A stretch of 63,143 nucleotides of DNA, filler included, from Dugesia japonica (lineage: Eukaryota): NCBI GenBank assembly GCA_001938525.1. It is 6 parts of 6 records of this genome, joined end to end, with 100 filler letters (N's around TTAATTAATTAA, not from the genome) between each part and the next. Parts side by side here need not be neighbours in the genome. Positions count along the whole stretch, not along the records: positions 1 to 12,123 come from MQRL01590504.1; positions 12,224 to 22,350 come from MQRL01621098.1; 4 more parts are not named here. The stretch is one strand, 5' to 3'. The notes beneath the pieces are model-generated. The model did no database searches, had not been told where the DNA came from, and was given only the letters and a program-made list of their open reading frames with translations. Made by a program: the position numbers and the translations under genes. This document shows positions 5,200 through 44,040 of the stretch, piece after piece; the stretch's first letter is position 1; every line of letters begins with the position of its first letter.

Positions 5200-6025
5200 T
5201 CAGGACTAAGTAAAGATTTAGGACTTGCTCTCAAAGAATATGAAAAATACAAAGTTAAGAGAAACATTGACAACACGTCTTGTTATCAAATTCACGGAAA
5301 TGAGATCCGTAGCAAAGATACACGAAGACAAGGTACATTATCAACGAATTTCTAAAAAGGAAGATATCTGTATGATACAAAAAAGATGAGTTATGCAAAT
5401 GTAGTGAAACCACATATTAATAGAGTTTAAGAGGATAAAAAGAAAATACGTGTAAATAATTTGTCATTAAAAGGAACACACAACCAGTGATTATGGAAGA
5501 ACACAGGTAATGATGCGTAAACCGACAGTATTGATGAGTTATTACGCAAGATGTTAGTTTAATAAATATAGAGGATTTTCAGAAACTTGTGAAGAGAAAC
5601 TTCAAGAGGGACAATGTTATTGCTGTGGAGAACATGGACATAAACGATACCAATGCTCGTTAAGAGACAGGTGTTTAATTTGCAGCAAGCCTGGCCATAA
5701 TTTTAGATACTGTCCGATTTTATAGGGTTGGTCTAATGGAAGGAACACTAAACTTTTATAATAATATTATAATATCCCAGAGAGGATAAGATGTTCATAG
5801 ACACTGGCGCTAATTTTAGAACATCAGTACATTCCGTAGTCAATGCAAAGAGGAAACGGAAGCGGAAATGGATCCAGACATTTGACAGCTCATGAAAAAG
5901 TATACTGTGTGACAAGTAAAGAACTATTAGCTATACACGGATTTGTACAAAAATTCAAACAATATTTGTATAGAAAGAGATTTCTAGTAAGAACAGACCA
6001 CAAAGCGTTGGTGTTTCTGAAAAAC
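5200..6025 (+). mobile_element. Ty3/gypsy remnant: gag zinc knuckles joined directly to an RNase H fragment
   Basis: 5615-5713 reads CYCCGEHGHKRYQC..CLICSKPGHNFRYC (two CCHC knuckles). 5775-6025 reads YPREDKMFI..SRHLTAHEKVYCVTSKELLAI..KQYLY..FLVRTDHKAL, nearly identical to 57170-57430. Confidence 0.9.
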
Positions 6026-8115
6026 AGATGCTGTTGAGGTAGGTCGTATATTAATCAATGCGTTATATAAGATATCCAGCTTGCCGATAGATTTTTCAAT
6101 AAATTCTATTGGCGAAATTCTTTTTTCAGTTTATTATATTTATTATCTGTAATGGAACTTATTGCATTTTGCAATTCTTTTCGTAATCCAGCTTGTGGTG
6201 ATAATTCTANNNNNNNNNNNNNNNNNNNNNNNNNNNNNNNNNNNNNNNNNNNNNNNNNNNNNNNNNNNNNNNNATATATTTGTTCCATTATTTTTTCAGC
6301 AAATGAAATTGCTGCATTTTTTGAAGAATTTTGAAAATAATCGTTAGAACTTGGTACATTCCTACCACGTAGATAAATGATAAGTGCCATTAAAACTGGA
6401 TCTCTTTTTTCATTCATCCTTCTTTTAATAGCATGTAGCAGCTTCTTGGGATAAGTTGCAACTTTTCAAACAAAAATTTGTAAATTTCCTCAACTGTTAT
6501 GAGATCTGCATTATTTTTTCTTAATTAACTAACGGCAGCTTTAATTAGTGAAAGAACATCAATATGGTTTTGTAGAACGAAAATATCATTTAAGGAAATT
6601 GGTTCTAAATTCAATTCCACTAAAGATTTATTGACACATTCTGATAAAATTAAAAATCGTCTAATCATTACAATCAAAGAATTCCGTCTTGTTTTGATGC
6701 CAATTTCAACTCCAGTTTTTCCCCATTTTTGAACTAAATTTTGTTGCAAAACNNNNNNNNNNNNNNNNNNNNNNNNNNNNNNNNNNNNNNNNNNNNNNNN
6801 NNGGTTAAAAGATGTTAATAATTTGACCAAAATCAATACTCAATGTCATAACATCTTTATTATCTTCAACAAACTCCAAATTGTTATCTAAATACAGATC
6901 TTTTCTGAAATCTTCTACTTCATAATCTTCAATTTCATCATCAACAAAATTTTCGATATCGTCCTAGTCCAACGCTTTATTAGAAGTAGAATTTATTAGT
7001 ACATTAAAACAGTCCATTACGGCCAAATGGGGTGCATGATTATAGCAAAGTTTATTTAAAACATCCTATATTTTCCATTATTTTTTCATTACAGCTGCTG
7101 CGTCGTTAGTTGATACAATAACATCACTTTTTAAAGAATCTCAAAGTTTGCATGCTTAGCTTCAACTAAATGTTTAATAGTTTCTGCATTTCCTTGCTTA
7201 AACATTTCCATTGAACGCAGTTCAATTTATTTTGATTCTATTCTAAGTGCATGAACTGTTACGTTTACATAACGTAAGATGCTGCAATCTGTCCATTCAT
7301 CCACAGTTATAGCAAATTTACGATTTGGTTTTTAAAACTTTTCAAATTTATTTCGCAGTTCAATACGTTTTTCTTTATTAAAACTGATGATGCATTTTGA
7401 AATAGTTGTTGGCATTTTATAATCCTTTTGTTGCACGTATCCAGCTATTGCATCAGATTTGCTTATTGCTTGGATTAATATACCATCAACTGCTGAGACT
7501 TTTGACAATATTTAATTAAAAGACTGTTTATTTTACAAAGTTCAACTATAGTACTTGTTTCAATTTTTGGCTTTTTCTGCGGAACATTGTTTTCTTCATA
7601 ATTTTCACTTGATACAGATTTAGATATAAATATGTTGTGTCCTAACTTCAAATTATTAATCATAGGAGTGGTTGAACTTTTACACCCTACATTCGCGTTA
7701 CAGCTACCACATGTAGCTTCACCAGTTTTTTCTTCTTTCTTAAAAAACTTCCACACCTCGGATTTTTTTGAAATGGTTAAAAATCTAAATATTAAAAATC
7801 TAAATAATTTTGTAAGATAATCTAAAAAACTTCAATTTGCCTTTCAAATATAGGAATATCCAAAGAAATTAATGTAACAATTGATTACGATGTAATGACA
7901 ATAAAAATTACTTATTGCTACTGTTTTTCAAAAGCCAACTAAAATAATGTCACACAAAACACATAACGAAAATTCAAAATGCAATTCTTTCAAACTTTTT
8001 TCAAAGCTTACTTTGATTGAATTTTTACAACTTATAATTTTGTATCTTTCAAAAATATTCGAATGTGAAATAGTCAACTAACACACAAATATATTCAAAT
8101 ATCAAGTATTCGAAT
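6026..8115 (-). mobile_element. hAT transposon remnant (BED-finger transposase pseudogene)
   Basis: BED finger SEVWKFF..ATCGSC..H (7630-7765); FAITVDEWTD..RYVNVTVH; STNDAAAVMKK; CYNHAPHLAV; TRRNSL (RWNS motif); C-terminal LYNALINIRPTSTAS truncated at 6026; TATTCGAAT subterminal repeats at 8057-8115. Confidence 0.9.
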
Positions 8116-8687
8116 AGAATCTATAAGAATCTATAGAATCTATTAGAATCTATAATTTATTATTAATATTACTACAACCGCCATTATTCATTATTGCGAC
8201 GGTGATTACAAATAGTTACCAGCGACATTATATTCAGTATTATTTTGATCCTTCCACCCTTACCGCCCATGAACACCATTAACCTTACTGTGATTATTAA
8301 CAACGTTCACATCTAAAATCCAACTTCCTATCTTTTTACAAGGAATAATAATTAGTAAGGTTGTCCTTATAAGGCTTTCCAAGTTACTGCGCCAAACTTA
8401 TGCTAATTTCGGTCACCATTTCTAATAGTGACCAGCCATACTCTACCTTTTAATATACCTTTAGTGAACAAAACCAAACGTGTTACATAGAAGTTATACA
8501 AGCTAGACGATGGTTTGAGAAAGATTAATCGTTTAAGTTAATCCTACGTTGGTTTGTAATTTCAGACTATGGATGGCATACATATAAAGATGTAAACAAC
8601 CGCACTATGTTTCATCGAGTTCTGATTTCTTAAATCTTGTGGATACTATTGCGTTGTTAATTTACTCGAAGTTAATTTAAGTGGAAG

Positions 8688-8858
8688 TTTGAACCCGACT
8701 CAAAGAGATCCGAGCAGGCACTCAAATTAAGGTTATGAGTCAATGTCTCCATTCAAAAACTCTAATTATGAAATGTTAGATCAAATTCTTCGCGTATTCC
8801 AGTGAGGACTGAACCCTAGTCCCAATTTTTAACACACAACTCCGGTGGGACCCAAACA
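8688..8858 (+). mobile_element. LTR-like terminal repeat, copy 3 of the structured family
   Basis: Collinear with the reverse complement of 10034-10210: GAACCC, GCACTC..GAGTCAAT, TTAG..AAATTCTT, TGAGGACTG and CAACTCCGGTGGGACCCAAACA. Preceded by purine-rich AAGTGGAAG. Confidence 0.75.
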
Positions 8859-9139: not shown

Positions 9140-9549
9140 TAAACAAATCGGAGCTCCTGCTCATTGGTCTGTAAATGTTCGGGAATTTTTTAATGAAAAT
9201 TGGGTTGGATGGGGTGGTGCTCTTGCATGGTTTGTATGATACTCAGAACTTGGTTCGCCCGATGTTTTCCTTTGGGGTCAACTGTAAAATATAGTTTACA
9301 AGCGAAACCCTGAGTAACCAATAGAATTCATCTAAAATGAATATTCTAAAATAACTCTACAATTGATAAAAAATTTGGTGTTGACTTATAAATATCGTTT
9401 GCAGCAATTAAAAGTTATAAGAAATCTTGTGAACACTACAAGCTTTAATTAATACATTTTATAAAAAATGTCTTTATTTTTCATTACCTTTTTGTTTTAT
9501 GTGAGTAGTTGATGAATTAAATTAGAGATACTTATCAAACCACCTGTAT
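9140..9549 (+). mobile_element. Tc1/mariner (DD37D/maT-like) transposase 3' remnant
   Basis: KQIGAPAHWSVNVREFFNENWVGWGGALAW..SELGSPDVFLWGQL*NIVYKRNP matches the family pattern QQDGAPxH..WIGR..WP.RSPDL.P.DFFLWG.LK..VY. Ends in TIR-like CACCTGTA. Confidence 0.8.
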
Positions 9550-10033: not shown

Positions 10034-10210
10034 TGTTGGGGTTCCACCTGAGTTGAGTATCGAAAAACGGGTGGCTGGGGAGAAACAGNCCTCAGGGGAC
10101 CCTTTCAAGAATTTAACCTAAAGTCCCTAGTTTAGGTATTCAGCGTAGAGTGATTGACCTCCTACTTCATAGGAGGTGCACACTCGTACACCTTTAATTT
10201 GGGTTCATCA
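10034..10210 (-). mobile_element. LTR-like terminal repeat, copy 1 (177 bp, TGATG...CAACA), with PPT-like AGAGGAAA at 10219-10212
   Basis: Homology with 19409-19583 stops sharply at ...CAACA. Termini are TG/CA. A purine tract lies immediately 5' on the minus strand. Confidence 0.75.
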
Positions 10211-10277
10211 GTTTCCTCTATAAGCATAGACAATTAATTAAACAGAAATTAAGAAGAAACATCTATTATAATGACAA

Positions 10278-10658
10278 CTATAATTCCTCCAAAACTCCAG
10301 GATCTAACCACTGGGCTGGGTCAGTCACCACAAAATCAAAGGCGGCCATATCAGCGCTATTGTCCCACTGTACCCAAGTGGGGTTGCCCAGCTAGCGAGA
10401 AAGATCCGAGATGTATTGCTTTAAAAAGTCTATTTTTCGTTGGAGCAATTGCTTGGTTTCTTCTACGAGAGCTTTGGTTTGAACAGCCAGTTCGCTCTGT
10501 TTTCTAACAACCAGATCGAGCTTTTTTATGAGTTTTTTTCGCTGGTCAAGATGCTTAAGGATTGGCCTGTCTGCTTTTCGTTTAAGGTGCGTCTCTACTA
10601 AAAGACGGCGCATTTCTGTGACATCGTCATAGGCTATTAGGAAAAGTAATTTGACGCA
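10278..10658 (-). pseudogene. Accessory coiled-coil ORF A of the LTR-like element, copy 1 (disrupted)
   Basis: After acceptor TTTATTTAG|TG it reads RQITFPNSL*RCHR/..LIKKLDLVVRKQSELA..KIDFLKQYISDLSR*LGNPTWVQWDNSADMAAFDF..AQWLDP. It aligns at protein level with 19651-20022. Confidence 0.75.
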
Positions 10659-10832
10659 CTAAATAAAAGGACATTAATGACATTCATATCTCGCTAATGA
10701 TACTAATTAAATATAAAGGTTAGAAAAAAATTGGACGAAAATAAACACAAAAAAAATATAATTTTATTAAACCGCATTTAAACAAAGTTTACGGACGAGA
10801 GGTCTGGACCCCCTTGTCCACCATAAGTGGTG

Positions 10833-11226
10833 TCAGTGGCATGATTTCCTTAAATTCATAATATCACCAACCAGTTTATTCTCCCTGTCTTGGTAGGACC
10901 AGATAATTTCGGTAAGTGACTCCAATTGGGCTTTCCAAACCCTTTCCTGCTGGTGGGATGCCTCGGCTTCTTCTTTAAAGGCCAAGGTCTTATTTTTATA
11001 GCGCCGAACTTTGGCATCAGCAGATGCGACATCGGCTCCCCAGCGACGTTTGGCCAATTTATAGAGATCCCATGTGATTTCGGTTTCGTCACTGGAAGCT
11101 CTCATTTTCTTGGTCGGGGCTGTAGCGCGATTCAATGATGAGTGCACTAGAATAAACGAAATCAATAAAACACTATATAAAGATTTGGGTTAATTGCATC
11201 AACCACTCACACCTAGTTTTGCTCAT
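10833..11226 (-). CDS. Accessory coiled-coil ORF B of the LTR-like element, copy 1 (two exons)
   Basis: ATG at 11226, exon to 11211, intron 11210-11147 (GTGAGT...TTCTAG, 64 bp). The splice gives in-frame MSKTRL|HSSLNRATAPTKK..AKVRRYK..DRENKLVGDIMNLRK. Homologous to 20204-20511. Confidence 0.7.
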
Positions 11227-12123
11227 TGGGCACTCTCCAGTCATTACCTTTATTCTTTAAAAGAAAAAAAACAAACTATTGACAAAAAAAAATTTGTTTT
11301 AAGTCTTGAAACAACTATATTTTTTATTGGATTGAAACTATAAACAAGATGGATCACTATTTGGTAGGTGCTGAGTCGATTACGGGTGTGGTATTCTCAG
11401 AGTCCTCAACACCCGATAGTTCTCTTACACCCCAGAGCAGATTGGTGATAAATAATCATATAGATTATACACTTAAATGGAATAAAACATAAAATATACA
11501 TTCTATTTTACACAATACTTAAACTCAAAATAAAATCAAAATAAAATCAAAATTAATTACTAGAATATTACATTGTCAATTGTAAGGAGGAAAACTAATT
11601 GAAGATACCAACTAGACATTATCACAATAATCCACCCTGGGGGCTCTACGATTGATGTTGATGGGGCAGAAATTTCACCTACATTTGCATAATGGTAATC
11701 TTTCCTAAATAATTTACAAATGACTTGTCGCTAATCCACAAGAAGAAATTTCGAGGTGTCTATATCAATTTATTTTTGTGGTTCCCCTGGCTAAATGATC
11801 TGATTAAGAATTTTCATACTAAAATATCCATACATTTCTAAATTAGTCAAAGAAGAAACGTCCAAAACTCAGATTCAGATATAATTTGAGGATAAGTGGA
11901 TCTACAGTAATTCCCTGGTAACCCATAATTACCGAAATTCCAATGAGATGTTTTGGATTTTTCAATTTGGCAATAATAAGAAAAGACAGAAGTGAATAAA
12001 GTTGGAAGAATTAATTAAATTAAAGATGAAAAAATTGCCAAATTAAAATAACAATTGAAGAATAAATTAAATTAGATGCGAATAAACTGCTAAAATAAAA
12101 TGTCAAAGAAAAGTGAATAAATA

Positions 12124-12223
12124 NNNNNNNNNNNNNNNNNNNNNNNNNNNNNNNNNNNNNNNNNNNNTTAATTAATTAANNNNNNNNNNNNNNNNNNNNN
12201 NNNNNNNNNNNNNNNNNNNNNNN
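12124..12223. other. Artificial scaffold-joining linker
   Basis: 44 N + TTAATTAATTAA (stops in six frames) + 44 N. Confidence 0.97.
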
Positions 12224-15124
12224 AAAATCTATTATAAAATGATATTATCAAAACATATTAACTAAAGACAAAATTATAACCTAAATAAACCAAAATTATC
12301 GGCTGGCAATTCAATTTCGCAACATAAAGTTATCAGTTCCTCATTTCAATTGAACCTCAAACCAATATAAAAACTTAATTATTTATTTATCTGAAACCAT
12401 TTATGATTCCATAAGGAAAAAGAGGAGAAAATATTCAATCGAAGAAACTTGTTGACAATTATTTATATTTAACTTGCATATTTAAACAAGTGATTTGTTT
12501 ATGATTTGTAAGTGTTTATTCATTTATCCTTCATTTACGATTTTCTTTGCTTTAAAGTTTAATTTTCAACTAAAAATTTATATTTCCATACAAACTAAAT
12601 TGATAATAAATGAGATATTTTAGATACTTTTTAAAAAGTTATTTCAATATTGAAGTTTTGTACATGAGTAAATTTAATTAAAAATTTTATCTAAATTTTT
12701 ATTTGTAATTAAATTAATTAAAATTATTTTGACCAACTTTTATTGGTCAAAATTTTTCTTGAAATTTATAATTAATTCAAATAATAATTATAATTCAAAT
12801 GAAATTCAAAGAAATTGAATATAATTTAAAATATTTTCAATAAAATTTTATCTTCCTTCTAGACGTCATTGTATATTACAAATTTAAATTGTTTAAACAA
12901 ACTTGTTATTTTTATAAACTGTTATTTATTATAGTAACAACATTTTACTTTTTAATTTCGATATTCAATTAATAAATTGAAATAACCAATTAATAATTAA
13001 TATAAATAAATTAAATATTTAATAAATTAAATAAGTAAAGAATTTCTTAAATGTACAAAACACAAATTGGAACATTNNNNNNNNNNNNNNNNNNNNNNNN
13101 NNNNNNNNNNNNNNNNNNNNNNNNNNNNNNNNNNNNNNNNNNNNNNNNNNNNNNNNNNNNNNNNNNNNNNNNNNNNNNNNNNNNNNNNNNNNNNNNNNNN
13201 NNNNNNNNNNNNNNNNNNNNNNNNNNNNNNNNCAATTATGTAATTTCTTCAAGTAATCAAATTAATTGTGAAAAATTGAATTAAGACCCTGAAAGACTTG
13301 TCTAAACATTAATAAAGGACCAATCTATTTAATAATCAATGGTTAACATATAACTTTCACCAAATAGTTTTTAACGTTTCAGCAGAAATTGTAAAATTGT
13401 TTATACTAATAACTGATTTACAACCAATACTTTGTTTAGCAATTTTATTTCGACTACCAACTTGTACAGAGATAACGGGTAATCTCCAAAGTGTGTGGCG
13501 ATACACTCATATTTATAACCAATGTGTCATAATACTTATATGCATTGGAGAAACGTACGTCATCTCTTCAATATATAATTATATCAATATATAAGAACCT
13601 TTTAATGGATTAAAAAATTATACCTGAAGATTATTATTATCATCATCATCATTATAACAATATTATTGACAATGACCACAAAAAACATATTTATATATTT
13701 AAATAAATAAAATAATAAATATTTTATAAGACGATATTTATAAAATAGCATTTTAATCAATAATATTTAAGAAAAATAAAATTATTTTCAATGGTTAAAA
13801 AAACTAAATATTTTTTAGTCGGTAAATAATTAATATAAAATTTTTCACTAAAATTCATTTGAATAAATTCTATTATTATTTTTTCCCATTAATTTACTCT
13901 TAAAAATATTTAGTTTACGGATTTCAGATTTTGTCAAGTCACATAATAACAACGCTGATATTATTTTGGAAATGAAACCTGTCACAATGGTATACAGTGG
14001 ATCATTGATAATTAATTAACTACCTTGACAACACAACGCTTTGTTTCGTTTTACTTACTGCTTCGCTGAATTTTTATACTCTTTTCAAAGAGAATTTTCA
14101 ATACAACAGTCTAATACTACGTATACAAACATAGGTAATAATAAAATTCAATTTAATTTCAAAATTTTTAATTGAATTTTAAATATAATCTACGAATTTA
14201 TTTTAACAAAGATTTGTTTAATTTTATCGATTTAAATGGTTAACAGGTTTTTCTTAATAAAACATTCAACTTCTCAAACGAAACACTTCAAAACAAACTT
14301 ACTTTATCTGAGACGACTCTGAAAAAGAAAAACTTTTAAATATTAAACGAAATACAAAAAAATTACTCAGTAGAACGATGATCTTTATTCATATCGGACA
14401 TATTTTGAAAATAATTAATCTACAACGAATGACTAATTTAACTATGAATAAATGAAACACTTTTCAAAATATAAATAATTAATTATTTAATAAAATTGAT
14501 GTATTAAAAGAAATATGACCATGAAAAATGTTTTTTTCATAATTTAATATAAATATAATAGAATTTGTAATTGTTTTATCTTTGCTATTTTAATAATGTT
14601 TTTTTCTTTTATTATTTTATTATATTATATATTATTATATTTTATTTTATTCTTTATTAATTGTACTTATAATAGTAGCAATAATAATAATATTAATAAT
14701 ATTTTTTTTAATATTTACTTTAACATAAAAATTGCATGAATAATATTTTTGCTACTTTTTAGAATTTTGTTAATCTAAATTAAATGATAAAATCTAAACA
14801 GCTAAACTTTGATTTCTTAACTTACATTATTAACTTTAACTCAAATTTATTTTTTAAAAATCTGTGAATGAATTGTGAACTGTGAGTTAAAAAAAAAGAG
14901 GCGACATTGTTTACTGAAAATTAAAGTTTGAATAATATATTGTATCAGTTATATATAAATGAAATTACTTTAAACTTTTTATAAAATCTTGTAAATACAT
15001 GATTTTCCATTCCAATTTGAAATGGCAAAAGTCAATTTTGACAAAAACTAGATTATTTAAATAAACTACATTTAATTATTTATTGGTATAGATACTAAAC
15101 TTGGTAAATATAAATGCATATTTC

Positions 15125-17105
15125 TGAATCAACTTTCACAGTCAGAGGTCGAAAATCCAGAAAGAGACGAATGTCTTCTTTTCTCCAGATACTTATNAAC
15201 GGGGTGTTCCATGTTGAATTGCACTTTCGTATAATTCCATTTTCAAGAAGATTACGTATCCCTTCGTTTATCTTATCCTCTAGGTTCATATGTGTCTTCC
15301 ATAGCTTAAAATCTATAGGTCCTCCTTTTGATACTCTTTTATGCTTCACCAGTTTTGTACATTTTATGTCCCATTTGTCTGCTATAAAGATATTTGAATG
15401 TTTTCTTATCAACTATTTGATTGTGCTATTTTCCAATGTATTTATCTCACTCAAAGCATTTTGACATCTTTCTTCATCTGTAATAATTCTTCCTAAATGC
15501 GCCTCGATATATCAAATCCGATCCTGATTATCACACTACTGTATCTCTCCAATTTAGTTCTATTCCAAAACTGGTCTGCAACTGAATGCCACCAATTATG
15601 CTGGGGATTATCTGTTCCATAACTATGAAATTAATCCATCTATTCGTATTGCATATCTTCACTTCTATTTCAAATCTTCCTTTGGTACTTAATAAACTGT
15701 CTTTAGCTCACCGTAGTCTATCTTTTGTTGTTAATAACGAGATATCCTTGAATTTGTTAAACACATCCATAAACATCACATTAATTCTTGCTCCGTTATC
15801 CAGTAGGCATTCAAACTCCATGTTTTGATTCTTTATCGTAATACTCGGTCTACTCTGAATTGTACCCAATCTAACCACACTTTTCCCCATTCTTCCACTG
15901 TTGCGCTTGTTGGTTTCACTGATGTTTCTCTCTTGATTACTGATATCTCTTTCTTTTAAGAATTATAAACTCGTTCTTTGACATCATCCTCTATATTATT
16001 GATATGACTACTGTTACTATAACTGTCGATATTTTGGGGATCACCCATTAGATTTTGAGTTCTACAGCTCCTACTATGTCCTCTGTTGGCGGAGCTTCTC
16101 TGTTTGGGTTTCTCCTTGATTCATATACGTTTGCGTCATATCTGTTGTTACCAAATCTAAAGTTTTCATATCTGTCGTCCTCATATTCCTTGTTACTTGT
16201 CTCATCATCTTTCACTGCATTGATGTTAACATGCCTACATGAAAATGGGAGCATTTTTACATCATTTCTCTTATATTCCTAAAGGATATTCGTTCCATCT
16301 CTTGTACTCCATCTTTGTGAAAATGTTTTCGGCTTGATAACTGTTCTTGTTGCATTTTTCGCACTTTATCTTGTTTCACTGTCTTCTTATATGCCCTACA
16401 CTTCCACATGCGTGGCATGTAGGAGGGTTTCTGTCTGGGTACTCCCAAATTATGTGTCCCAACACATTCCAAAATTCTGTTTTCCCTGTTCTGAACTTCC
16501 TTCTGGTATTTAGCCATTTGAAGGTTGATTCCAACATCCTTGGTATTGTTCTTTTTGGTTCTGCGTATAATGCCTCCTTGTAGCTACACATCACGGTTAT
16601 TCCTTCTGTCTTTTTGTCGATTCTTCAAACGTCTGTGATAATTTTTTTTCTTCCGGTTCTGAAACCTTTTTCATCAAAATCTCTTTCTTTGCCTTCTTAT
16701 GTGTCGCTGCGTTTATCAAGAGTGCTGATATTAACTACTCTATTCCCAGATTATGGCTAAGCACTTTATCTGCCAGTTTTTCTACATCGTGGTAGACTAA
16801 CTCATTATTGGTATCACCCTGCCTGTAACAAATTCTAGGTCTTCAAAAACGTCTCTTGATTTTTTCACCAGTAGTTGTAGCCTTGCTTCAAACCCTTTGA
16901 CTTTGTTCTCTGGTGCTTCATATTTTTCTTCAAGCTTCGGGTCAATCATCTTACCGATTACAATCTCTTGTAAATCTTTGGGAATTTAGCCCGCTTTGAA
17001 GAATCGACCGATGTCTTTCAAGAATATGACAAGATTGTCACCTAACGTGAAAGGTCTCGGGCGTAACAAATCTGTTATTAAGTTTGAGCTTGTTGTGGTT
17101 GCCAA
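15125..17105 (-). mobile_element. Ty3/gypsy gag-protease-RT(N-terminal) remnant
   Basis: Gag start LLRPRPFTLGDNL..RFF; knuckle TCHACGSVGHIRRQ; protease CLLDNGARINV; RT start GIIRKCNSTWNTP..IRLFLDFRPL. Many stops and frameshifts. Confidence 0.92.
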
Positions 17106-19408
17106 GTTGCATAACCTATTAGCAAGAAAAACGTTTTCTTCATCAAACATTTATTTAAGACAAAGTTACTGTATATTGAAAAACAGAATTAGGAAAGTTA
17201 TAATATTCAAAAAAATATGCGCAATAATTATTTTAATTATTTTCTTGAGATATTTTAAATTTCAAAAATTTTATAAATACTTTAATTGCGCATAAACGAT
17301 TCAAATATCATTTTCACAAACCCTATTTTTGATGGCAGTCATAATTTTATTTTCAGATCTTGAAATATCTTTTTGTAATCTTCTATTTTCTATTGAATTC
17401 AAAAATTGAGAATAATGAGGTAAATTAAGAACTTCATGATTGTTATGTCTTATTGAGAATTTTTCACTTCTTGTCATTCATGTAATATTTAGATTAATAA
17501 TGAAGTATAAATACAGAATGTATATTTATTAAAGGTATTCAGCTTTTAGAATATAACACCATATCAATAGTTTAAATTAAGTTTAAATTATTTATTTTTG
17601 GTCAAAATTAAACTTCATAATGTCAAATTGGGGCGAAAATCCTATAATTGAGGAAATTTTGATTACAAATTATAATTTTATTTCTTACTATTTTGACAAT
17701 TCTTATCAATATAAGAATTACCAGTTAATTATGTTTTTAGAAACTTAATATTTCAATAGAAATAAACATAGAGATATTGTTTGCCTTATTAAATTCTTTT
17801 AATTTGTTATATATTATGGGGATAGGTGTACACCAGACCAGTTGTAAATATATAAAAGTTTTTATAATTTTTCAATGATTTTTTTAAAGTTTATGTAAAT
17901 ATTTAAATAGTTCTTGTAACTTTTTGAGAGGTTACAAGAACTAATTATTAAGATTTATTTTAAAATTATTTAGTAAAGTGTATTCTTGTGTTTGTATTTT
18001 AAAAATGATAATTTTTTAAAATATTTTGTTTTAAAATTCATTAAAATAAAAGCTTCGATCAAAATTTGTTTTTTTGGTTTTTGATACAAAGGAATTGACT
18101 TCTGACATTTTCAATTTAGAATAATTTAATTTAAATTTTAAAAATAATTTTAAAAATTAACTGTAAAATAGATTTTAGTAAATAAAAATAAATCTTTAGT
18201 TTTTTTTACCTTAAGAACCCGGACAATTTTTTGTTTACTCTTCCCATAATTTTCCGCAACTTGAAAATATCCCATAAACTCGTTCGTTAGTAAATACCTC
18301 CAACCTATCTTCTAGTGTTGGAACTCGATTATTTTCGTATTACAGATATTTAAAACGTGATTAATAGTAATTGCGAACGGGTAGATAAATTACTGGTAAG
18401 GTTTTTCAATGAGTATCACATTATTTAATATTGAATGGGTTCTGTGATCATTTTTCAAGAGAAATGTTCTCACTGCTGTTGCTTGTTATTTGTATTTTAA
18501 ACCTATTATTATTTATGAGACCAATAATTCTAAAGTTCCTTTATCATAATTTTATTAATTATATGACAATAATATGATACTTAAATTAANNNNAAAATGC
18601 ATACCTGTTTCTACAACAGGATATAAATAGGTTCAAATAGATTACTTAGCTGGAATAATTGATTTATCACGAGAAATTTGTCTCAATTAGGCTAATAAAA
18701 CTTGACAAAACTTCTAAATTTCTTTTGTAGAATTATTTTGAAATCTGATTTCTTTCTGATTGGTGATCTTTTTTAAAACTTTTTCTTCGCCGTCTGATTG
18801 GATTTGTATTTTTAAATTTTCTGTGTTGCACTTGGTTTTTTATTGGTGGGTATTTTAAGCAATCACTTGATTTTTCATGCTTTGTTCTAAGTCTTTTTTC
18901 TGGTCCCTTATTGGTCTATTCTTCATAGCCTTTTCCAGGTTTTCTTGAAGTTTTCTCATTTTTGGCATAAACAAAATTGAACTCCCGTTGCTGAATTCTA
19001 ATCAATTTTTCTTGTCTCGATATTTTCCAATTATTCGTAGCGAAGTTATTCGTGTTTTCTTCTTTTTCTACTAATTGACCTTTGTTTTTTTAACTAATTA
19101 ATTAATAATTTCTTTATTCTTTCCATTCTATTTTTTCTAATTTTAATAAATTTAATTCGTATTTTTAATATATTTTAATTATAGCTTATCAAATGTCTTC
19201 TTTTTTTCTATTCTAATTATTTTCTTTATTTATTCTATTATTTTCTTAAATAATTCCTAATTATTTCTAAATTAATTAACAAGAATTCTGAATTTTCTTA
19301 ATTCTTTTTATATTATTCATAATTGATTAAGACTCTGTTTGATTGGGGTCCCTCTACTTTTGATCGTCTCTTTTTCCGGGTGTTTCACTCCAACCATATT
19401 ATTACTAT

Positions 19409-19583
19409 TGTTGGGATTCCACCTGATTCAAGTGTAGCAGAAGGCGGCTGGGGGAAAAGACAGCCCTCAGTGAACCCTTTCAAGAATTTACCTAATGCCC
19501 CTTTTTAGGTTTTAGATGTGAAGTTGCTGACTCCCAACACTTATTTGGAGTACTCACTTAGACATATTTTTATTCGGGTTCCA
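19409..19583 (-). mobile_element. LTR-like terminal repeat, copy 2 (~175 bp), with PPT AAGGGGAAAG at 19595-19586
   Basis: Aligns with 10034-10210 and shares the ...CCAACA end. The polypurine tract is adjacent. Confidence 0.75.
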
Positions 19584-19650
19584 GGCTTTCCCCTTATTTT
19601 ATTTATTAAAAGCAAAACAACATAGTTATAGCTTGTAATAAAAATTTTAT

Positions 19651-20022
19651 TTACAATGATTCACATAAAGTTTAACGCTTCAGGGTCAAGTCACTGGGCA
19701 ATCTCGCCATTCGCAAAATCAAAGGCGGCCTTATCGTCATCGCTGTTCTATCGAACCCAGGTTTCTTGTTCGAGGCGGTTTGACAGATCGGCGATGTACT
19801 GTTGTAAAAATTCAATTTTATGAATGAGAATTTGTTTAGTGTGTTCAGCCAGTTCACTTTGCTTTTTGACTATGACGTCGAGTTTTTTAATCACTCTATT
19901 ACCTTGCGTGAGATGGTGCAGAAGAGCACGCTCATTCTGGCGCTTAACGTGACGTTCGAGTAAGAGTTTTTGAATTAACCGGTGGCAGCGGTGAAGACTA
20001 TTTGGAAGGCAAATTCTGGGCA
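19651..20022 (-). pseudogene. Accessory coiled-coil ORF A, copy 2
   Basis: Acceptor TTTTCAG|TG; reads PRICLPNSLHRCHR..KKLDVIVKKQSELA..ETWVR*NSDDDKAAFDF..AQ*LDP. Its stops sit at positions that are Trp in copy 1. Confidence 0.75.
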
Positions 20023-20203
20023 CTGAAAAGAAACACCTAATTAAGAACCAAACCAAATATGATTGACATAAAAATAGAAAATAAAATTACCATAAGAAAT
20101 TTTGTTAGATGAAAACAAACCAGTTTANNNNNNNNNNNNNNNNNNNNNNNNNNNNNNNNNNNNNNNNNNNNNNNNNNNNNNNNNNNNNNNACATATCAAT
20201 CAT

Positions 20204-20511
20204 TTAAAATTCTAACGGCATATGTTTCCGTAGCTCCAAAATATCGGCGACCAGTTTATTTTCACGGTCATGGAGGGACCGGATAGTATCAGCGAATGAT
20301 TTCAGCTGTTTCTTCTACAGCCGTTCCTGCGAGTGAGAAGCTTCTGATTCCAGCAGATATGTCTGACATTTGGTCCGATAACGCTTAACTTTTGCGTTGG
20401 CGTTAGCCGTGTTGGCTTCCTCCTTTCTTTTTTGCCAGCATATCTCAATGTCCTTGCTGGTTTCGCCTACTTTCTTAGTGGGAGCGACTGAATGGTTGAG
20501 CGATGAATGCA
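20204..20511 (-). pseudogene. Accessory coiled-coil ORF B, copy 2
   Basis: Acceptor TTCTAG|TG; candidate donor A|GTAAGT at 20617/20616; reads HSSLNHSVAPTKK..AKVKRYR..ERL*KKQL..DRENKLVADILELRK. Confidence 0.75.
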
Positions 20512-20814
20512 CTAGAATTTACCTACAATTTAATTTGATTAAAGAATCTATTAACAAGATAACAACAAAAATTAAGAGTAAACAAGTTAAGCATATGATT
20601 TATGTAACTGACTTACTCAAAAGAAAATAAGAGATAATTGTTGGAAAGCTTCATTTAAGATAAACTAAATTTATGAACGGAAAACATTTATTTAAAGAGA
20701 AAAGTAAATGCGATTAATTTACGATATTGCCAGATGGTTCAATGTTTTCAGTGTTATTAGCATTCCCCGCGTCTCAAACTCTTCACAACGTGTTATCAAT
20801 TAATCCTCGCAACA

Positions 20815-21134
20815 CTACAATAGAAGAGAAGTGCTCTGGAAGAGAATGTGGGGTGTAGTTTCCCTCCACTTACGACGTTGATGTTGTACACCCGAGGCGT
20901 CGGCGGTAGTAATTGTTATCGCGGAGAAGGTTATACGGCTTCGATTCGGGCCGGTGCAATCTGAAAAAGCCTGTCTTTTGGTAGCGTCCCAATATCGGTC
21001 ATAGTCTGCATCGGTGGTTGAATAATTGGCCCGTTCCACCAGGACGGCGGCATTTCGGTTGAACGGATTCACCTACCGTTTAAACATCATTCGGCTTGTA
21101 GTTTTGTGCTGGATTAATTCCCACTTAAATTCCA
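20815..21134 (-). pseudogene. Accessory ORF C of the LTR-like element, copy 2 (unknown function)
   Basis: Acceptor TTATTCAG|TG gives EFKWELIQHKTTSRMMFKR*, in frame with the 85-aa ORF VNPFNRNAAV.... It forms a GC-richer island co-oriented with ORFs A and B. Confidence 0.55.
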
Positions 21135-21257
21135 CTGAATAAGACAAATAGATATTTACATGTACAACAAAAGAAATGAATCAACAAAGTAGTAAATAAG
21201 AGCAAAAACTAATCATGACAATGAACACATTTATTAAGGAATTTCAGAAATTAAAGA

Positions 21258-21693
21258 TCAGGTTTCATGATCTAAGTCGACTCGGTCGGCCTTTGACAGC
21301 GGAAATAATTCAGCGAAGCATCTGAGGTCCGTCTCATCTGTGTGCAGAATAAGAGTCGGAGCTAAAGTGTGCCCGGTCAATTGTTTCCTGTGAGCACTTT
21401 GCCTCTCCTTATGGATAAATCTTAGTGTTTCTATTAGGATGGAGGACATTATTTATGAATATTCTGAGCTCTAAATACAAAAATTTAAGAACTACGATAA
21501 TACCCACGAAATTTTGTATTCTTGATTGCCCCTTGGTCAGGAAAATTCTTAAGTGAAATAAATCGCACTTCCTTTTAATAACTGGATAGTAAAATATGTG
21601 TAAATGATTTAGGTTAAATCCAATACAAATAAAAAAAATATAAAATGTTTCATGAAAACTTGATATCCATAGTGATGATGGGACCTTCCCCAA
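21258..21693 (-). pseudogene. Accessory ORF D of the LTR-like element (frameshifted, unknown function)
   Basis: Overlapping ORFs 21409-21693 and 21258-21449 lie on the same strand as ORFs A-C, and AATAAA follows at ~21230. Confidence 0.4.
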
Positions 21694-22280
21694 TCAAGGG
21701 CAAGCAATTAAAACACTTAGATTGACAAGAACCGATCAACGTTTGGGAAAGGTGATAGCGAATAAAATAATGATAATTATTAGAATCAATACCACATATT
21801 TAATAAAGTAAAACATAATGACCATTTTAATAATGAAATTAATAATTACTCTAAAATTAACAATAACAGAATTGATATGTATGATAATAATTGTAATGTT
21901 AATCATAGTAATAATAATCATGATAATAATGCCGATAGAGATAGGAATAATTTTCGTAAAAGTGATGGTCACAAAATCACTAGCGGACGTTCAATAGCAA
22001 ACTGGAAACATAGAACCAATTGATAATCCTTCCCGGTCGTAGTGATGCTAGAACATCCACTAATTTAATATAAAATGTGATACAAAAAATCCCATGTAGA
22101 TAAGTCCATCAAAGGTCAACACGAAAATTCCATTGTGAGTGGGGAATAATGGTTCTCATTCGATGGAGGATATGAAAGTCAATTTAGAAATCAGTTGGTG
22201 AATTCTATCAAGTCAGGCAATGAATACTGATGTATTCTTGAATCGATAATTTCCCGGTGCTAAACGGTCAGAGATGATTT

Positions 22281-23732: not shown

Positions 23733-26204
23733 GAAGAAGACATCATATTACATGAATTCAATGCTGTAGAGGAAAGTAATCAAGTTGGTGGTGCATTTAA
23801 TTTAAGTGTTTCAAATGAATATGTTTTTATAGAAAAGGGACTTATATAGATGTCACCAAATTATAAAAATTGACATTTAAAGTTGGAATACTAATCAAAT
23901 TATACTACCAGAAAATTTGATTAACCAACTATTTAAAATAATAGATGAAATAAAAGAAGTTAAAATACAATTTGGACTCAACGTGGAATTTATAAGGTAT
24001 GAGAAGATCAAAACTTCTGGAATATTAACTTGAGCTGTTCTACTAAGTGACAGATTTTTTGAAGATGGTATTAAACAATTGAATGAAAAAATTCCCATAA
24101 GGACTGAGCTCGGTTCTAGTTGGATACTGAGTAGGACTTTGGAAGGGAATTTCAAAATCTTAAAGATTCAAATTATAAACAGACTGTCGAGACATAGTTA
24201 TATACCGACACCGGAGAATTTGAAAAAGAAAAAAGCAATTGTTAACGTTAAAAATAGAGATAATAAATGCTTTATTTACAATATTTTAGCTATTACTAAG
24301 TATGACCAAGTTCATACAAACAGATTTAGAGAATCAAATTATCATAAATATATGTCTGAGTATGATTATGAAGAAATAGACATGCCAATGTGGTTGGATA
24401 ATATCAGAAATTTTGAAAGAAAAAATCCTGAACTTTCAATCAATGTCTTTTCATGGAATGTAAACGATGTAAAAGATAATGATCAAGATGTTTTTAAACA
24501 TCCCAATTTGGATAGTATCCATAGATCCAAGGTGGTTGATGGTGAGAAGATTTATTTGTTGATGTTAGAAAATGGTAACAACTACCATTATACAGCTGTA
24601 GTTAACTTAGACAGTTTAATGCATAGAGATGATAAAAACAAAGTTACAATGATCCAATCAATATGGTGTCGAAATTGTTTTAACGGATTTAGAAAGGAAA
24701 TAGCTTTTGAGAAGCATCAGGTAATTTGTGAGAAGATTCAAACCGGAGCAACATTATATACCATGCCAACAGATAAAAACTTAGAATTCAAGGAATTCTC
24801 TAAGATAATGACACCACCATTCGTCATATATGCTGATTTCGAATCAGTTTTATCATCAAATGACGTATATTTTCATAGACATATGCCGGTTTCAGGAGGA
24901 CTTTTATTAGTAAATAATTTTACTGACAAAACAACATATAAACAGTTTATCTGTGATACCTGTATATATGATTTTTTGAAGGAAATTCATGAATAAATAG
25001 AATTACGGAGGCTCCCTATTACGAAGAGAATGGAAATAAGCCAATGGTAATATCAAGAGTAGACGAAATATCGTTTGCTGCCACCACAAGTTGTTATTTA
25101 TGTAAGAACACATGGTCTGTACCAGTTCGAGATCACAATTACTTTACTGGTCATTATTTATGTGCAGCATGTTCTAAATGTAACTTGAGTGGAAGTGTGA
25201 AAATGCAACTACCTGTTGTATTTCACAATTAAAGAGGGTATGATTTACATCATATATTGAAATATGGATTAAATTTTCACAGTGGAGCCTAAATTGTATT
25301 ACAACAACAACAGAAAAGTTTCTATGCTTAATAGGGCATGAAACTAAATTATCAATAATTAAGTTCATAGATTCATATCAATTTATAAATTCTTTACTAG
25401 ATTCAGAGGGAAAGTCCTTAAAAGAGACACCTTTGACTTTTAACGAATTTAAAGATAGAAAAATTGCAACGTCAAAGGGGATATTTCCATACAATTATGC
25501 AACCAGTTTGTAAGTTCTGGTTGAAACAACACAAATGCCACCAAGATGGAATGAGATCACAAAGGAAGAATATAAAAGGCAATGGAAATGTGGAGAATCA
25601 CCGATTTTAAGAACCTTCTGGACTGGTTTATTTGAAATTAGATGTTTACTTATTGGCAGATTTCTTCCAAAAGTTCAGATTGAAATCAATATCACACAAC
25701 AAATTGGAGCCATTGAATTTCTTTGGTATACCTGGTATGAGTTGGGCATCAGCCTTGATGTCATTGAAGGAACCTGTAGAACTGTTGATGGACTATGACA
25801 TGTATACCTTTTTCGAAGGTGGTATAAAGAGTGGATTGACATTTATCAATAAACTTTATGTCGCCGCAAATGAAAACACAGATTTGTTATATATAGATAT
25901 GAACAATCTGTACGGATGGGCACTAAGTCAAAAATTACCATATAAAGACTTCGAGTGGGTGCATACTGATTTAGAATCAGTATTACACAAATGTCAAGAC
26001 GATTGATCTGGATGCGTTGTCATACGGATACACTATGGAGGTAGATATCGTTATCCCTGAAGAAATCCATGACAATCTAAAGGATCTACCAGTAGCTGCA
26101 GAACATTAATGTGCTCCAGGTAGTAATATAAAAAAGCTAATGTTGACTCAATACGCTAAGGATAATTATGTTTTATATTGGAAACTGCTACAAATGTATA
26201 TGAA
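23733..26204 (+). mobile_element. Polinton/adintovirus protein-primed DNA polymerase B pseudogene #1, 3'-truncated
   Basis: SYIPTP..AIVNVKNRDNKCF; zinc finger WCRNCFNGF..H..C; ExoI VIYADFES; CYLC..VRDH..TG..CSKCNL; PVVFHN*RGYD; FIDSYQF; KGIFPY; LDVYLLAD; motif A LLYIDMNNLYGWALSQKLP. Motifs B and C are absent because the gene is cut at 26204. Confidence 0.93.
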
Positions 26205-26425
26205 AGTAGTTGTTAAATGGGCTGGATGACCCCCATAGCGTCTTTCTGGATTTTTCATCATGTTCAAAATGATTGTTTTGGTGGGGTTTTCCCATTTAAT
26301 GACAGAAAATCCAAAATTTGAATCAATTAGTTAAATTTATTAAATTAAATAAATGGAACCATGCAAAAAACGGCAAAAAATCCAAAAAAACGCCACAAGT
26401 GCTATCCAGTCATTTAACAACTACT
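26205..26425. repeat. Imperfect inverted repeat with AGTAGT...ACTACT ends, putative left terminus of Polinton #2
   Basis: AGTAGTTGTTAAATGGGCTGGAT..GCGTCTTTCTGGATTTTT matches the reverse complement of 26375-26425, AGTAGTTGTTAAATGACTGGAT..GCGTTTTTTTGGATTTTT. Confidence 0.75.
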
Positions 26426-26501
26426 ACACTTTGATAAATAACATTATTTTCAATAAATAAGATAAATAATAATAAAAAGCTATTTATACAATAAAAAAAG
26501 A

Positions 26502-29500
26502 CATGCCGGCATTACGAAGAAATAATAATCCCAATTTACCTCCAATTATAAGGAGAAATAGGATAAATAGAAGTAATAGACCATCCTCTCTCTTTAATCA
26601 CATAGACGTGCGAAGATATAATTGGGAAAAACAATAGATTAATAGATTGGAAGCAATAAATGTTCACCCTTTTTATTTTAAAGAATCTATATTTCATGAT
26701 TTACTTTTAACTGATAATATTAATACATATTTATCTGGTTTTGAAAATACAATCAGAGATAAGATAGAACACTGTCCTTACAAAAAATTCAAATCTATAA
26801 TCTCTTGCACCGTTTATATGAAAAGAGATGACCTATTAATTAACGAAGAGATAGAAAATAGAAATACTTAAGAACAGGATATATTAATTCAGTCGCATCC
26901 TTTAACTTGTTTTAATAATAGTAGAAATAATTATGAAGAAATGTATATTTGTATAAATTATGTTTTCGACAATAAGATGAACAGTTTACAAGGAATCAAT
27001 TGGAGAATAATAGGTTTTAAAGATTTTTCAATAGAATTCACCAGAGTTAAATTTCTACGCGGAGGACATATTTTAAATCTCCCATTTAGATCCATTTCAA
27101 TAATAAAACTTTAAAACAAAAGATAATTTCTGCATATTTTGGCATATAATTGCGTATTTATTTCCTCAACCAAATGATTCGCATCATATAATCGATTTTA
27201 AATATTATTCAAAATATTTTAAAGGAATAAATATTAATATATTAAAATGGTATAGATGTAAATCAAATAATGAATACGGGTTTCCAATAAATAAGATTAG
27301 GATTTTGGAAAAATTATTCAACATTTTTATAAATGTTCTTGAATTATATCCAAAATCATTAGAAAATGATAATACACTCCGAAAAAATTATTTATCATCC
27401 CCATTGCATATTTCGAATAATGAAATAAAAACCGACGGTTTCCAATATGAGGTTTTAAATAATTTTCACGAGCAATAAAATTATTTACACAAATTTAGAT
27501 ATTTAGAGCCAGATTGTAATAATATGTCTCTTAATAAATGTAAACTCTATCTAGGATATTACCAAGGACATTACTTTTGGATAAAAAGATTAAAGAGTTT
27601 TCTCATTGAGGAGTCTTCACATACTGGAGCTGGTTCATACTTATGTGACAGATGTTTTAATTATTCGAGAACGTCATAATGTAGGTGGAGGATTAAATAT
27701 AGAATCAGCAATTCTTGAATCAGTTTCTCCTGACGCTTTATTTGAAATAATTAAGGAAAAAGGAATATATCCATACGAGTGGATTGATAATCCGACAAAA
27801 TATTATGAAACACATCGTGATTTAAATGGTAGATTTTGCCTTTTACTATTAGAATCGTTTTATTCAACATTACACGGAAAAGGAATAACTGGAGAGAAAT
27901 ATAAAAGATATAAAGATGTTTATCAAATATTTAGATGTTGAAATTTCCTTGATTGCACAATTCTATATAATAAATTGGATGCATATATTATGGCCGATGC
28001 AATAGAAAAATTTAGAGTAATAAATAAATTTGATCCAACATATTTTGTCTCTGCTTCTGCTTTAACATGGAAAAAAGGTTTAAAACACAGGAATTTCATT
28101 AGATTTATTACAAACGCAAGAATTGTTTGAATTCTTTGAAAGACGAATAAGAGGGGGAATCTCAACGGTGTTGGGAGATAGATATGTTAAACAAAATAAT
28201 AAATATACTAATAGTAAATGTGACAGATATAAAATATTAGATAAAATAGAACGCCAAGATATATTAGATGCTTTAAAAATAAATGGCAGGAAAACAACTA
28301 AACTTAAAGAGGCGCTAAAATCTAATTATTTATTATATATCGATGATAATAATTTATATGGACATTCAATGAGTCAACCTTTACCTTATAGTTATTTTGA
28401 ACAAGCCGCAAAAGAAGTAATAGATTGTGTGAACCAAAACCTGATGCAAGGATTACAATTTATGTTTAATAAAGCAAAAGAAATACATAATAATGAGTTT
28501 AATGTTGGTTATGCTTTTAAAGTTGATTTACAATATAAAGATGATGCAGCAAATTAGCTAATAGAAAATATCCATTAGCTCCAGAGAAAAGAAAGATAAA
28601 AATAAATGAATTATCTAATTATCAGAAAAATTTATTAAATCAATCAAAACAAAAATTTTTTGAGACAGAAAAATTAGTTTTAGATTTAAATCCAAAAACA
28701 AATTACGTTGTTTATTGGAAAAATCTAGAATATTATCTTCAAAGAGGAATGGTTGTAATAAAGATACACGCAGTAGTTTCATTTAGAGAAAAACCTTGGT
28801 TAAAAGGTTATAAAGATTATAATACAAGAAAAAGAACTGTTGCCACAGCTGATTTTCAAAATGATTTTTGGAAATTTATGAATAACGGTTTCTTTGGTAA
28901 AACAATGGAGAATATAAGATTAAGACAAAATATAGAATTAGTTAATACATCAGAAAAATTTATAAAAAGAACTTCTTAACCAACTTTTAAAAGTTTAAAA
29001 CAATTTCATGAAAATTTATTTGCCTGTCACTTTACAAAGAAACAAATACAAATGAATAAACCAATTTACATTGGATTTTTTATATTAGAATTATCGAAGT
29101 TGCATATGTATAAAACGTTTTATGAAAAATTAAAACCAAAATTAGATATTACAGCAATATAATCAGATACGGATAGTTGGGTGTTAAATATCAAATCAGA
29201 TGATGTATTTAAAGAAATAAGAGAAAAGAATTTAAAAGAAATATTCGAATTTAGTAATTACAAAATAGATAGTAATACTGGTAGAGAATTACAATTAACT
29301 ACTGAAGATTTGACTAAGCATAAAAAATAATTGGTTATTTTACTGATGAATTAGGAGGACAAATAATGAAAGAATTTTGTGCTTTAAAATCCAAATCTTA
29401 TTGTTTTATAAATGAAGATAATAAAGAGGAAATGAAAAATAAAGGAACAAGTAAAAGTGTTGTTGATAAAGAAATACACATGAATAATTATAAAGATGCA

Positions 29501-33617: not shown

Positions 33618-34124
<507 letters not shown>

Positions 34125-43519: not shown

Positions 43520-44040
43520 ATTGATTCTTTTAACCCGAAATCGTTCTCCCTTGGCATCTTGATGTGACGTTTAACATTGTGAACACCAGTATTCTCTTAT
43601 TATTGAACATTCGTCAGCATTTCTATGTGCTGCTCCTTTTCTGAATTCAACATTGAATTTATTTTCTACTAAATTTGTTATCCATGTTTGGAACTGCGAA
43701 CTAATAGGTTTACTCGTCATCGTCATAAATGTCAGAGCTTAATGACCTGTTCTTGTTCTAAATTTCCGTATAAATAATGTTTGAAATACACCATGAACTC
43801 GTGCAACGCAATAATTTTTTCGTGATCATTTAATATTTGTAACTTGGTGTAACTCATTCAATTACCCCAAAACTAGCATCTGTATCTAATATAATTTCAT
43901 GTTTAACATTTGGAAAAGCCAAGATAGGATCAATACATACCTTTATCTTTAACATTTGGAAACTATGCACACATTCGTTTGTCCATTTGATGTTTTTTCT
44001 TGCCCTGAAGTGGCTGCATATAATGGTACTGCAATAAGAG
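43520..44040 (-). mobile_element. Gypsy RT-connection/RNase H remnant
   Basis: WTNECVHSFQMLK..PILAFPN..ILDTDASF; FKHYLY; PISSQFQTWI; FRKGAAHRNAD; CSQC. Related to the 57-kb element. Confidence 0.88.

Follow-up and report, generated by a model that had tools for sequence, protein, structure and literature searches.

The stretch of DNA analysed here (the window) is 63,143 nucleotides from Dugesia japonica, made up of six scaffolds of about 10 kb each with N44-TTAATTAATTAA-N44 spacers between them, and has a guanine plus cytosine (GC) content of 27.5%. Two of the scaffolds each carry, on the minus strand, several small open reading frames (ORFs), a purine tract and a repeat of about 175 bp that begins with TG and ends with CA. 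These two arrays are referred to as copies 1 and 2 (c1 and c2) and both reach the scaffold end upstream. The same repeat is found twice more (c3 and c4). From their sequence features, the four copies are on balance probably the decayed 3' ends of a lineage of long terminal repeat (LTR) retroelements carrying several spliced accessory genes.

The relationship between c1 and c2 is evident from a comparison of the window with itself by BLAST, in which 10032-10140 matches 19407-19513 with 78% identity over 111 bp (E 2e-15), and from tblastx, which links ORF A and ORF B each between the two copies. A sequence-only reading of the window had reported one minus-strand layout on both scaffolds. This holds for ORF B, ORF A, the purine tract and the TG...CA repeat, but not for the ORFs further upstream, which are not homologous. 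The features are listed in Table 1.

Table 1. Features of the four copies, with positions counted along the window.
Feature	Position	Strand	Remarks
Terminal repeat c1	10034-10210	-	177 bp, TGATG...CAACA; putative 3' LTR with conserved hairpins
Terminal repeat c2	19409-19583	-	175 bp, TGGAA...CAACA; putative 3' LTR
Terminal repeat c3	8690-8858	+	profile match; absent from the sequence-only reading
Terminal repeat c4	3689-3849	-	the most divergent copy; N gap 3850-3859 truncates it at the 5' end; absent from the sequence-only reading
Purine tract AGAGGAAAC	10211-10219	-	directly before c1; putative polypurine tract
Purine tract AAGGGGAAAG	19586-19595	-	before c2
Purine tract AAGTGGAAG	8679-8687	+	before c3
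ORF A, copy 1	10278-10658	-	exon in phase 1 from acceptor 10659, helical/coiled-coil; one frameshift and two stops
ORF A, copy 2	19661-20022	-	phase 1 from acceptor 20023; two stops in frame; AATAAA at 19651
ORF B, copy 1	10789-11146	-	helical/coiled-coil exon after acceptor 11147, phase 1; AATAAA at 10768
ORF B, copy 2	20191-20511	-	phase 1 from weak acceptor 20512; two stops in frame; enters N gap 20128-20190
ORF C, copy 2 only	20815-21134	-	phase 1 from acceptor 21135; about 50% GC; homologue searches negative
ORF D, copy 2 only	21258-21430	-	acceptor candidates 21431 and 21471 (phase 1, no TG after); AATAAA at 21235
Island E, copy 1 (uncertain)	11560-11837	-	follows acceptor 11838; has an ATG of its own and a hydrophobic C-terminus; three stops in frame
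Island F, copy 1 (uncertain)	11340-11470	-	GC-raised, ORF-like; broken; weak acceptor

The terminal repeat and its conserved fold

A profile built from c1 and c2 identified c3 (E 6e-11) and the resulting three-copy profile identified c4 (E 8e-7); the best matches in reversed-window controls had E values of 0.89 and 19. The copies are 45–68% identical in pairwise comparisons, with c1 and c2 at 65–68%. All four have AACA at the outer end. Both TG and CA bounds are present in c1, c2 and c3, while c4 ends in CA and its start falls in the N gap. A purine-rich tract of 9–10 nt precedes the TG in c1, c2 and c3, as had been claimed for the first two, and purine-rich sequence lies past the N gap beside c4. 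Beyond the CA end the flanks of the four copies are unrelated, and no poly(A) or tandem tail is present there. Because four diverged copies have unrelated downstream flanks, the repeat is supported as the end of a dispersed mobile element. The presence of four such copies in 61 kb suggests an abundant lineage rich in families, as judged from one repeat-rich window.

Approximately 500 bp of GC-raised sequence lies upstream of c3. ORF A or ORF B homology was not detectable upstream of either c3 or c4; remnants of ORF A that seemed plausible by eye at these two places scored at the null level among 938 control segments and were rejected. Copies c3 and c1 are arranged tail to tail, 1.2 kb apart, with what we take to be a Tc1/mariner-like remnant between them at about 9140-9310. 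The sequence upstream of c3 is bounded by a decayed, hAT-like zf-BED transposase at 6300-7831 (-). Past the end of c2 by 300 bp is a lysine-rich, decayed, ORF-like stretch at 18600-19090 (-) that has no Pfam match above the cut-off.

The repeat is constrained, since c1 and c2 remain 65–68% identical within it although the adjoining synonymous sites are saturated. The folded c1–c3 alignment contains two hairpins, a long 5' one and a short one, and 97 of its 108 cells are canonical. When tighter ends are used, 9 of the 35 pairs have both sides substituted yet stay canonical in c1, c2 and c3; block shuffles have a mean of 3.0 such pairs and none of the 60 reached 9. The z of the fold energy is -3.6 for the ORF strand and -1.7 for the antisense, where the values were reached in 3/60 and 8/60 shuffles. 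Control alignments gave z values of 0.4 (a triplet of gypsy RNase H sequences), -1.7 (the ORF A pair) and +1.5 (the ORF B pair). The repeat keeps its hairpins through compensatory changes in three copies, with the ORF strand favoured. Rfam has no match to the repeat at the gathering level and none below E 1.3. Neither Rfam nor a pattern search identified a known ribozyme or internal ribosome entry site within it, and no transfer RNA or short interspersed nuclear element was found. The full hammerhead pattern is present in none of the eight strand-regions searched, which hold a single isolated CTGATGA in c1 and no telomere-like tandem.

ORFs A and B and their processing signals

The proteins of ORFs A and B are conserved between c1 and c2, having 54 identical residues out of 101 aligned for A and 51 out of 97 for B, and neither score was reached in 500 shuffles. 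The motifs previously quoted for them are present. Over the 198 codons of A and B together, the proportion of synonymous differences (pS) is 0.80, which is saturated, and that of nonsynonymous differences (pN) is 0.31, giving a pN/pS of 0.39 (bootstrap 0.32–0.47). The median after column shuffling is 0.92, with none of 2000 shuffles as low as 0.39. Identity at codon positions 1, 2 and 3 is 63, 75 and 37%, and the drop at the third position is repeated in a nucleotide-guided alignment. The value is not the dN/dS (ratio of nonsynonymous to synonymous substitution rates) of about 1 between copies that had been named beforehand as telling against a retroelement with accessory genes. Both proteins evolved under purifying selection and both copies have since decayed. 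Since synonymous sites are saturated while pN/pS is 0.39, c1 and c2 belong to long-separated families with selected A and B.

The decay is seen in each ORF. In c1, ORF A is interrupted by stops at 10629 and 10394 as well as by a frameshift near 10615, and in c2 by stops at 19750 and 19693. ORF B has a frameshift near 10845 in c1, where the homologous tail goes on in another frame, and stops at 20317 and 20206 in c2 before the N gap. For both proteins, which had been described as coiled-coil, AlphaFold2 predictions from two-sequence alignments show one long helix each. For ORF B this is a single helix over residues 18–102 (predicted local distance difference test, pLDDT, 85; predicted template modelling score, pTM, 0.45), and for ORF A a long helix with two short ones (pLDDT 79, pTM 0.42). 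A and B are not paralogues of each other, this having been ruled out by z values within +/-0.6. The tail of ORF B in c1 contains DKGVQT at 10810-10789 (-), which we take to resemble the dynein light chain LC8-binding motif; the matching part of c2 is in the N gap.

All homologue searches used decayed copies as queries, which lowers their sensitivity, and eukaryotic repeat proteins are thinly covered by the libraries. With these limits, the ORF A alignment had no match among 1.84 billion representatives. ORF B had none in a 5.8-billion set (0 of 17 candidates near its length and 0 of 1684 longer ones), and none of its 69 pattern matches in GTDB contigs was confirmed, nor was the single candidate for ORF C. 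Pfam had nothing above the curated cut-off for the small ORFs, PHROGs matched none of 10 proteins, and PDB sequences gave best E values of 0.19 and 0.36. Recognition in the ESM Atlas was low, with unnamed or generic helical matches at 0.88–0.91, and a BFVD fold search with the ORF A model had no match at E <=0.001.

ORFs A, B and C had been proposed to start at canonical splice acceptors. YAG is present at all five sites (10659, 11147, 20023, 20512 and 21135) and four of these pass a pyrimidine-tract filter, the exception being 20512. All five read YAG/TG across the junction and open in phase 1. Homology of the A and B proteins starts exactly at the conserved YAG, which means that these sites were not freely chosen. 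The phase-1 frame of ORF A in c1 is broken early, yet it is the one that aligns with c2 (11 of 18 residues). TG follows 5.4% of the YAG sites in the window, and the chance of YAG/TG at three independent exons is about 1.6e-4, a figure that is unadjusted for a pattern noticed afterwards. The first in-frame ATG is at codon 14 in ORF B of c1, where it is not conserved in c2, at codons 119, 97 and 15 in three others, and is lacking in ORF A of c1. As TG follows every acceptor and no ATG is close by, A is the probable last base of the leader. The absence of a conserved donor ahead of the stops gives A, B and C the appearance of terminal exons. The pattern of acceptor phases suggests predicted splicing onto one shared leader exon. 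A short private first exon for ORF B was rejected, as the GTRAG donors at 11210 and 20616 differ in phase, are not homologous and occur at about chance frequency.

The statement that most ORFs are followed by AATAAA is correct for four of the seven scorable ORF ends, where the signal lies <=25 nt from the stop, but ORF A of c1 has none before the repeat. The chance level is 8.4% of random 31-nt windows, and the count is suggestive only, as two of the seven ends were set by the analyst. AATAAA is also present 100–109 nt upstream of 3 of the 5 acceptors; 6% of random positions fall at 90–115 nt.

The upstream ORFs C and D of c2 and islands E and F of c1 are not homologous, the best minus-strand tblastx match having an E of 0.93 and shuffling giving z <=2.1. 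ORF C is broken by a stop at 21075. An integrase C-terminus in ORF D was suspected by eye and has no Pfam support. Hydrophobic stretches are present at 11560-11640 (-) and 21736-21990 (-), which are not homologous to each other, the one in c2 overlapping ATT-type low-complexity sequence. These could be remnants of membrane-protein genes.

Class of the element and rival explanations

The interpretation of c1–c4 as 3' ends of LTR elements comes from a purine tract followed by TG...CA and from an outer edge that is sharp and lacks a tail. TG...CA bounds and a polypurine tract before the repeat are present, and the tracts are short. Several observations weigh against this interpretation. The purine tracts are only 9–10 nt, and the inner 5' ends of c2 and c3 are a poor inverted match to CAACA. 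No paired direct repeats and no 5' LTR are present in the window, where the copies are 45–68% identical. A TGG-type primer-binding site directly after the CA is found in none of the four copies, as expected if all are 3' LTRs, and no target-site duplication was found, the window holding one end per element. The 0.8–1 kb beyond the small ORFs has no reverse transcriptase (RT), RNase H or integrase upstream in any frame, and no gag-pol was found linked to c1 or c2 in the window, in agreement with the sequence-only reading. All four repeats look like 3' ends, which has a chance of 1 in 16 if 5' and 3' LTRs are equally common and a lower one still with solo LTRs counted. The internal AATAAA sites would need read-through for genomic RNA to be made. 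Exons D and E lack a TG start and acceptor 20512 is weak. In the libraries searched, no homologue links A, B or C to any retroelement. As to the fold, single copies of the repeat are not unusually stable (z -2.7, 0.0, -0.1 and -0.7), c4 fits the common structure poorly, the covariation is based on three sequences, and the RNase H triplet used as a control is lower in GC.

On the same scaffold and strand as c2, 15095-17150 (-) is a decayed Ty3/gypsy-type remnant with gag (zinc knuckle), protease and the start of RT. It was rejected as the core of c2, being 2.3 kb outside that repeat and lacking a repeat copy on its 5' side. The start of a Penelope RT downstream of c2 was an eye-level resemblance with no Pfam support.

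The consistent appearance of the copies as 3' ends, with upstream sequence of differing length, is what would be seen if they were 5'-truncated target-primed retroposons, either Penelope/Terminon-like or of an unusual non-LTR type. RT would then recognise the folded repeat as the end of the RNA, and the coiled-coil exons would be accessory genes that had been retained. The preference of the fold for the ORF strand agrees with this, as do the coiled-coil and transmembrane ORFs of Terminons, most of which are truncated at the 5' end. However, a purine tract with TG...CA is unexpected in target-primed retroposons, no RT adjoins the repeat and there is no poly(A) or tandem tail. The hammerhead pattern is likewise missing from the 8 strand-regions, with no telomere-like tandem and no Rfam match below E 1.3, and this origin is unlikely. 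A slightly lower likelihood is given to the repeat being a long terminal inverted repeat (TIR) belonging to a Ginger-like or new DNA element whose transposase is of integrase type, in which c1 and c2 are right ends, c3 and c4 are left ends and the purine tract is within the TIR. This accounts for a purine tract in every copy and for c3 and c4 without A and B, and one poly(A) site per gene is tolerable in a DNA element. Read inward, the outer ends are TGTTG in three of the four copies, which fits the Ginger TGTNR, and TGTTT in c3. Ginger TIRs are 40–270 bp and some Ginger1 genes have introns. The outer 4-bp flanks of the four copies, AAAT, CTAT, TAAT and CTTT, do not in any case fit the Ginger1 CCGG/CCGT or the Ginger2 target (TATA; RTATAY). 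Pfam identified no linked transposase, and RNA-type covariation with a strand bias is unexpected for a TIR.

The lack of a visible pol and the position of AATAAA 100–109 nt upstream of 3/5 acceptors, a spacing similar to that in nematode operons, would suit a non-autonomous LTR derivative, such as a large retrotransposon derivative (LARD), or an operon-like cassette, with a separate poly(A) site for every small gene and with spliced-leader trans-splicing in place of cis-splicing to an element leader. The flatworm spliced leader ends in AUG and would be read in phase 0, but phase 0 closes within 4–15 codons at four of the five acceptors and the fifth is open only through a frameshift. Other known spliced leaders end in AG and supply no start codon, yet nearby ATGs are lacking. 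Such a cassette is as improbable as the TIR. An ordinary host gene cluster, in which two coiled-coil genes and their paralogues share a conserved 3' element, is very improbable. Purifying selection on A and B would be expected of host genes, but both clusters are pseudogenised, the repeat is present twice more without A and B, and its flanks are all unrelated and rich in transposon debris, with a sharp AACA end. First exons and start codons are not seen for these genes, and ORF A has no match in the 1.84 billion representatives.

The remainder of the window is, from a Pfam scan, mainly transposon debris with a few probable host exons. The debris includes gypsy-type gag, protease, RT, RNase H and integrase pieces, Polinton-like polymerase B, mariner/Tc1 and zf-BED (hAT-like) sequences. 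Three related gypsy pol remnants are present at 57010-58886 (+), 43520-45484 and 5765-6026 (+). The longest of these (57010-58886) includes domains of RNase H and of an integrase zinc finger; it terminates in a purine tract of its own near 58862-58877, after which the 175-bp repeat is absent. The regions 24034-29135 (+) and 36000-38279 (-) are homologous and contain decayed Polinton-like polymerase B, with endonuclease VII and GIY-YIG-like matches, all under the Pfam cut-off. Short related repeats of GATGAACAGTC-like units are located at 56226-56351 and 59000-59240, mutually inverted and in tandem at the second site. The probable host exons are 33618-33851 (-), a kinase closest to NDR/STK38, 47901-48218 (-), a cyclic-nucleotide-binding domain, and 55036-55326 (-), a ubiquitin-like domain. 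The content of the window thus points to a eukaryotic host, very probably an animal, and the composition is consistent with a planarian.

Proposed expression and known parallels

Taken as LTR elements, c1–c4 would belong to a lineage with many diverged families, in which a row of short terminal exons would separate the 3' LTR from an unseen pol. The two exons closest to the LTR, A and B, would be kept in both families that have them, while the exons further upstream would be specific to each family. A single transcript from the 5' LTR may be spliced from one leader donor to a chosen acceptor, so that each mRNA gives one small protein. With a leader ending in A, splicing would complete an A/TG start codon; alternatively the leader may give a short peptide read on in phase 1. 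The purine tract would prime plus-strand DNA synthesis. Unspliced genomic RNA may depend on the folded LTR RNA for its export, packaging or 3'-end formation, with one or both of the basic oligomerising helices A and B as the partner proteins, in the manner of Rev or CERV. Because the element has several internal acceptors and poly(A) sites, help with unspliced RNA would be needed. This role of the folded LTR RNA with A and/or B, proposed by analogy, is the weakest step and is rather doubtful. Only marginally less tentative is the whole proposal that an invertebrate LTR lineage became independently complex-retrovirus-like, with an A-ending leader joined to TG exons and with the A/B pair and the folded 175-bp LTR exporting unspliced RNA.

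Complex vertebrate retroviruses provide parallels in the deltaretrovirus pX region, the foamy bel genes and the HERV-K Rec/RcRE. Accessory ORFs have also been reported in some C. elegans Cer elements. The predicted splicing signals fit an organisation like the 3' region of a complex retrovirus, in which several accessory proteins come from alternatively spliced mRNAs. The likeness is in architecture only, as here env and pol are unseen, the LTR is far shorter and there is no homology.

Retroviridae, Caulimoviridae and some gypsy clades of plants and fungi are listed as carrying accessory genes (PMC2774666). The Vesta and Juno elements of bdelloid rotifers have a non-env ORF3 between pol and the 3' LTR, of coiled-coil, transmembrane or enzymatic type, and spliced messages, but they carry one ORF3 per element, whereas there are at least 3–4 separate exons here, with pol unseen and no sequence link (PMC5408684). 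In the springer subclade of Drosophila endogenous retroviruses, env is a 3' ORF spliced to a leader that gives part of the start codon or a short peptide; the codon is split AU/G for a single F-type env, while the split predicted here is A/UG for several non-env exons of about 110 aa (bioRxiv 10.1101/2023.08.03.551782). CERV of C. elegans Cer1 is a spliced accessory protein with coiled-coil parts that is required for export of unspliced RNA (PMC10309623). It is one large five-exon protein that shares sequence with Gag, in contrast to A and B, which are small separate terminal exons beside the 3' end (PMC10309623). The Drosophila MDG1 group has two small selected accessory ORFs (about 110 and 70 aa) separated by an internal poly(A) site; these sORF1 and sORF2 are upstream of gag and unspliced, and sORF2 is a membrane protein, unlike the soluble-looking helices of A and B (bioRxiv 10.1101/2025.03.14.642691). 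The expectation that simple elements carry at most env or one extra ORF was therefore a little too strong, with two small ORFs upstream of gag in MDG1 and three in a zebrafish foamy-like element.

Membership of the Burro elements had been considered beforehand. These likewise come from AT-rich invertebrate genomes and are LTR elements with accessory coding capacity, but have an internal region of <=25 kb with a polyprotein of about 4,900 aa containing BIR, BCL2, MATH, ankyrin and env parts and an accessory ORF upstream (PMC6431247). The idea found no support, as the ORFs present here have no BIR, BCL2, MATH, ankyrin or env Pfam match; the core is outside the window and Burro was compared by its description.

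Multi-gene spliced accessory regions are regarded as typical of complex vertebrate retroviruses. Among the invertebrate LTR elements in the literature examined, the additional ORFs are either a single spliced one, a type that was already known, or a pair without splicing, and it is the array of spliced ones that appears to be new. No flatworm or other invertebrate element with a spliced 3' exon array was found in the accessible literature, with most subscription papers outside it. In the event that the element is not of the LTR class, there would still be an abundant, unclassified repeat that combines orphan genes with a conserved RNA fold. If the LTR interpretation is true, a lineage with a spliced accessory array, new protein families and a constrained short LTR would mean that the complex-retrovirus organisation evolved anew outside Retroviridae, and repeat libraries would be overlooking selected small proteins in such elements.

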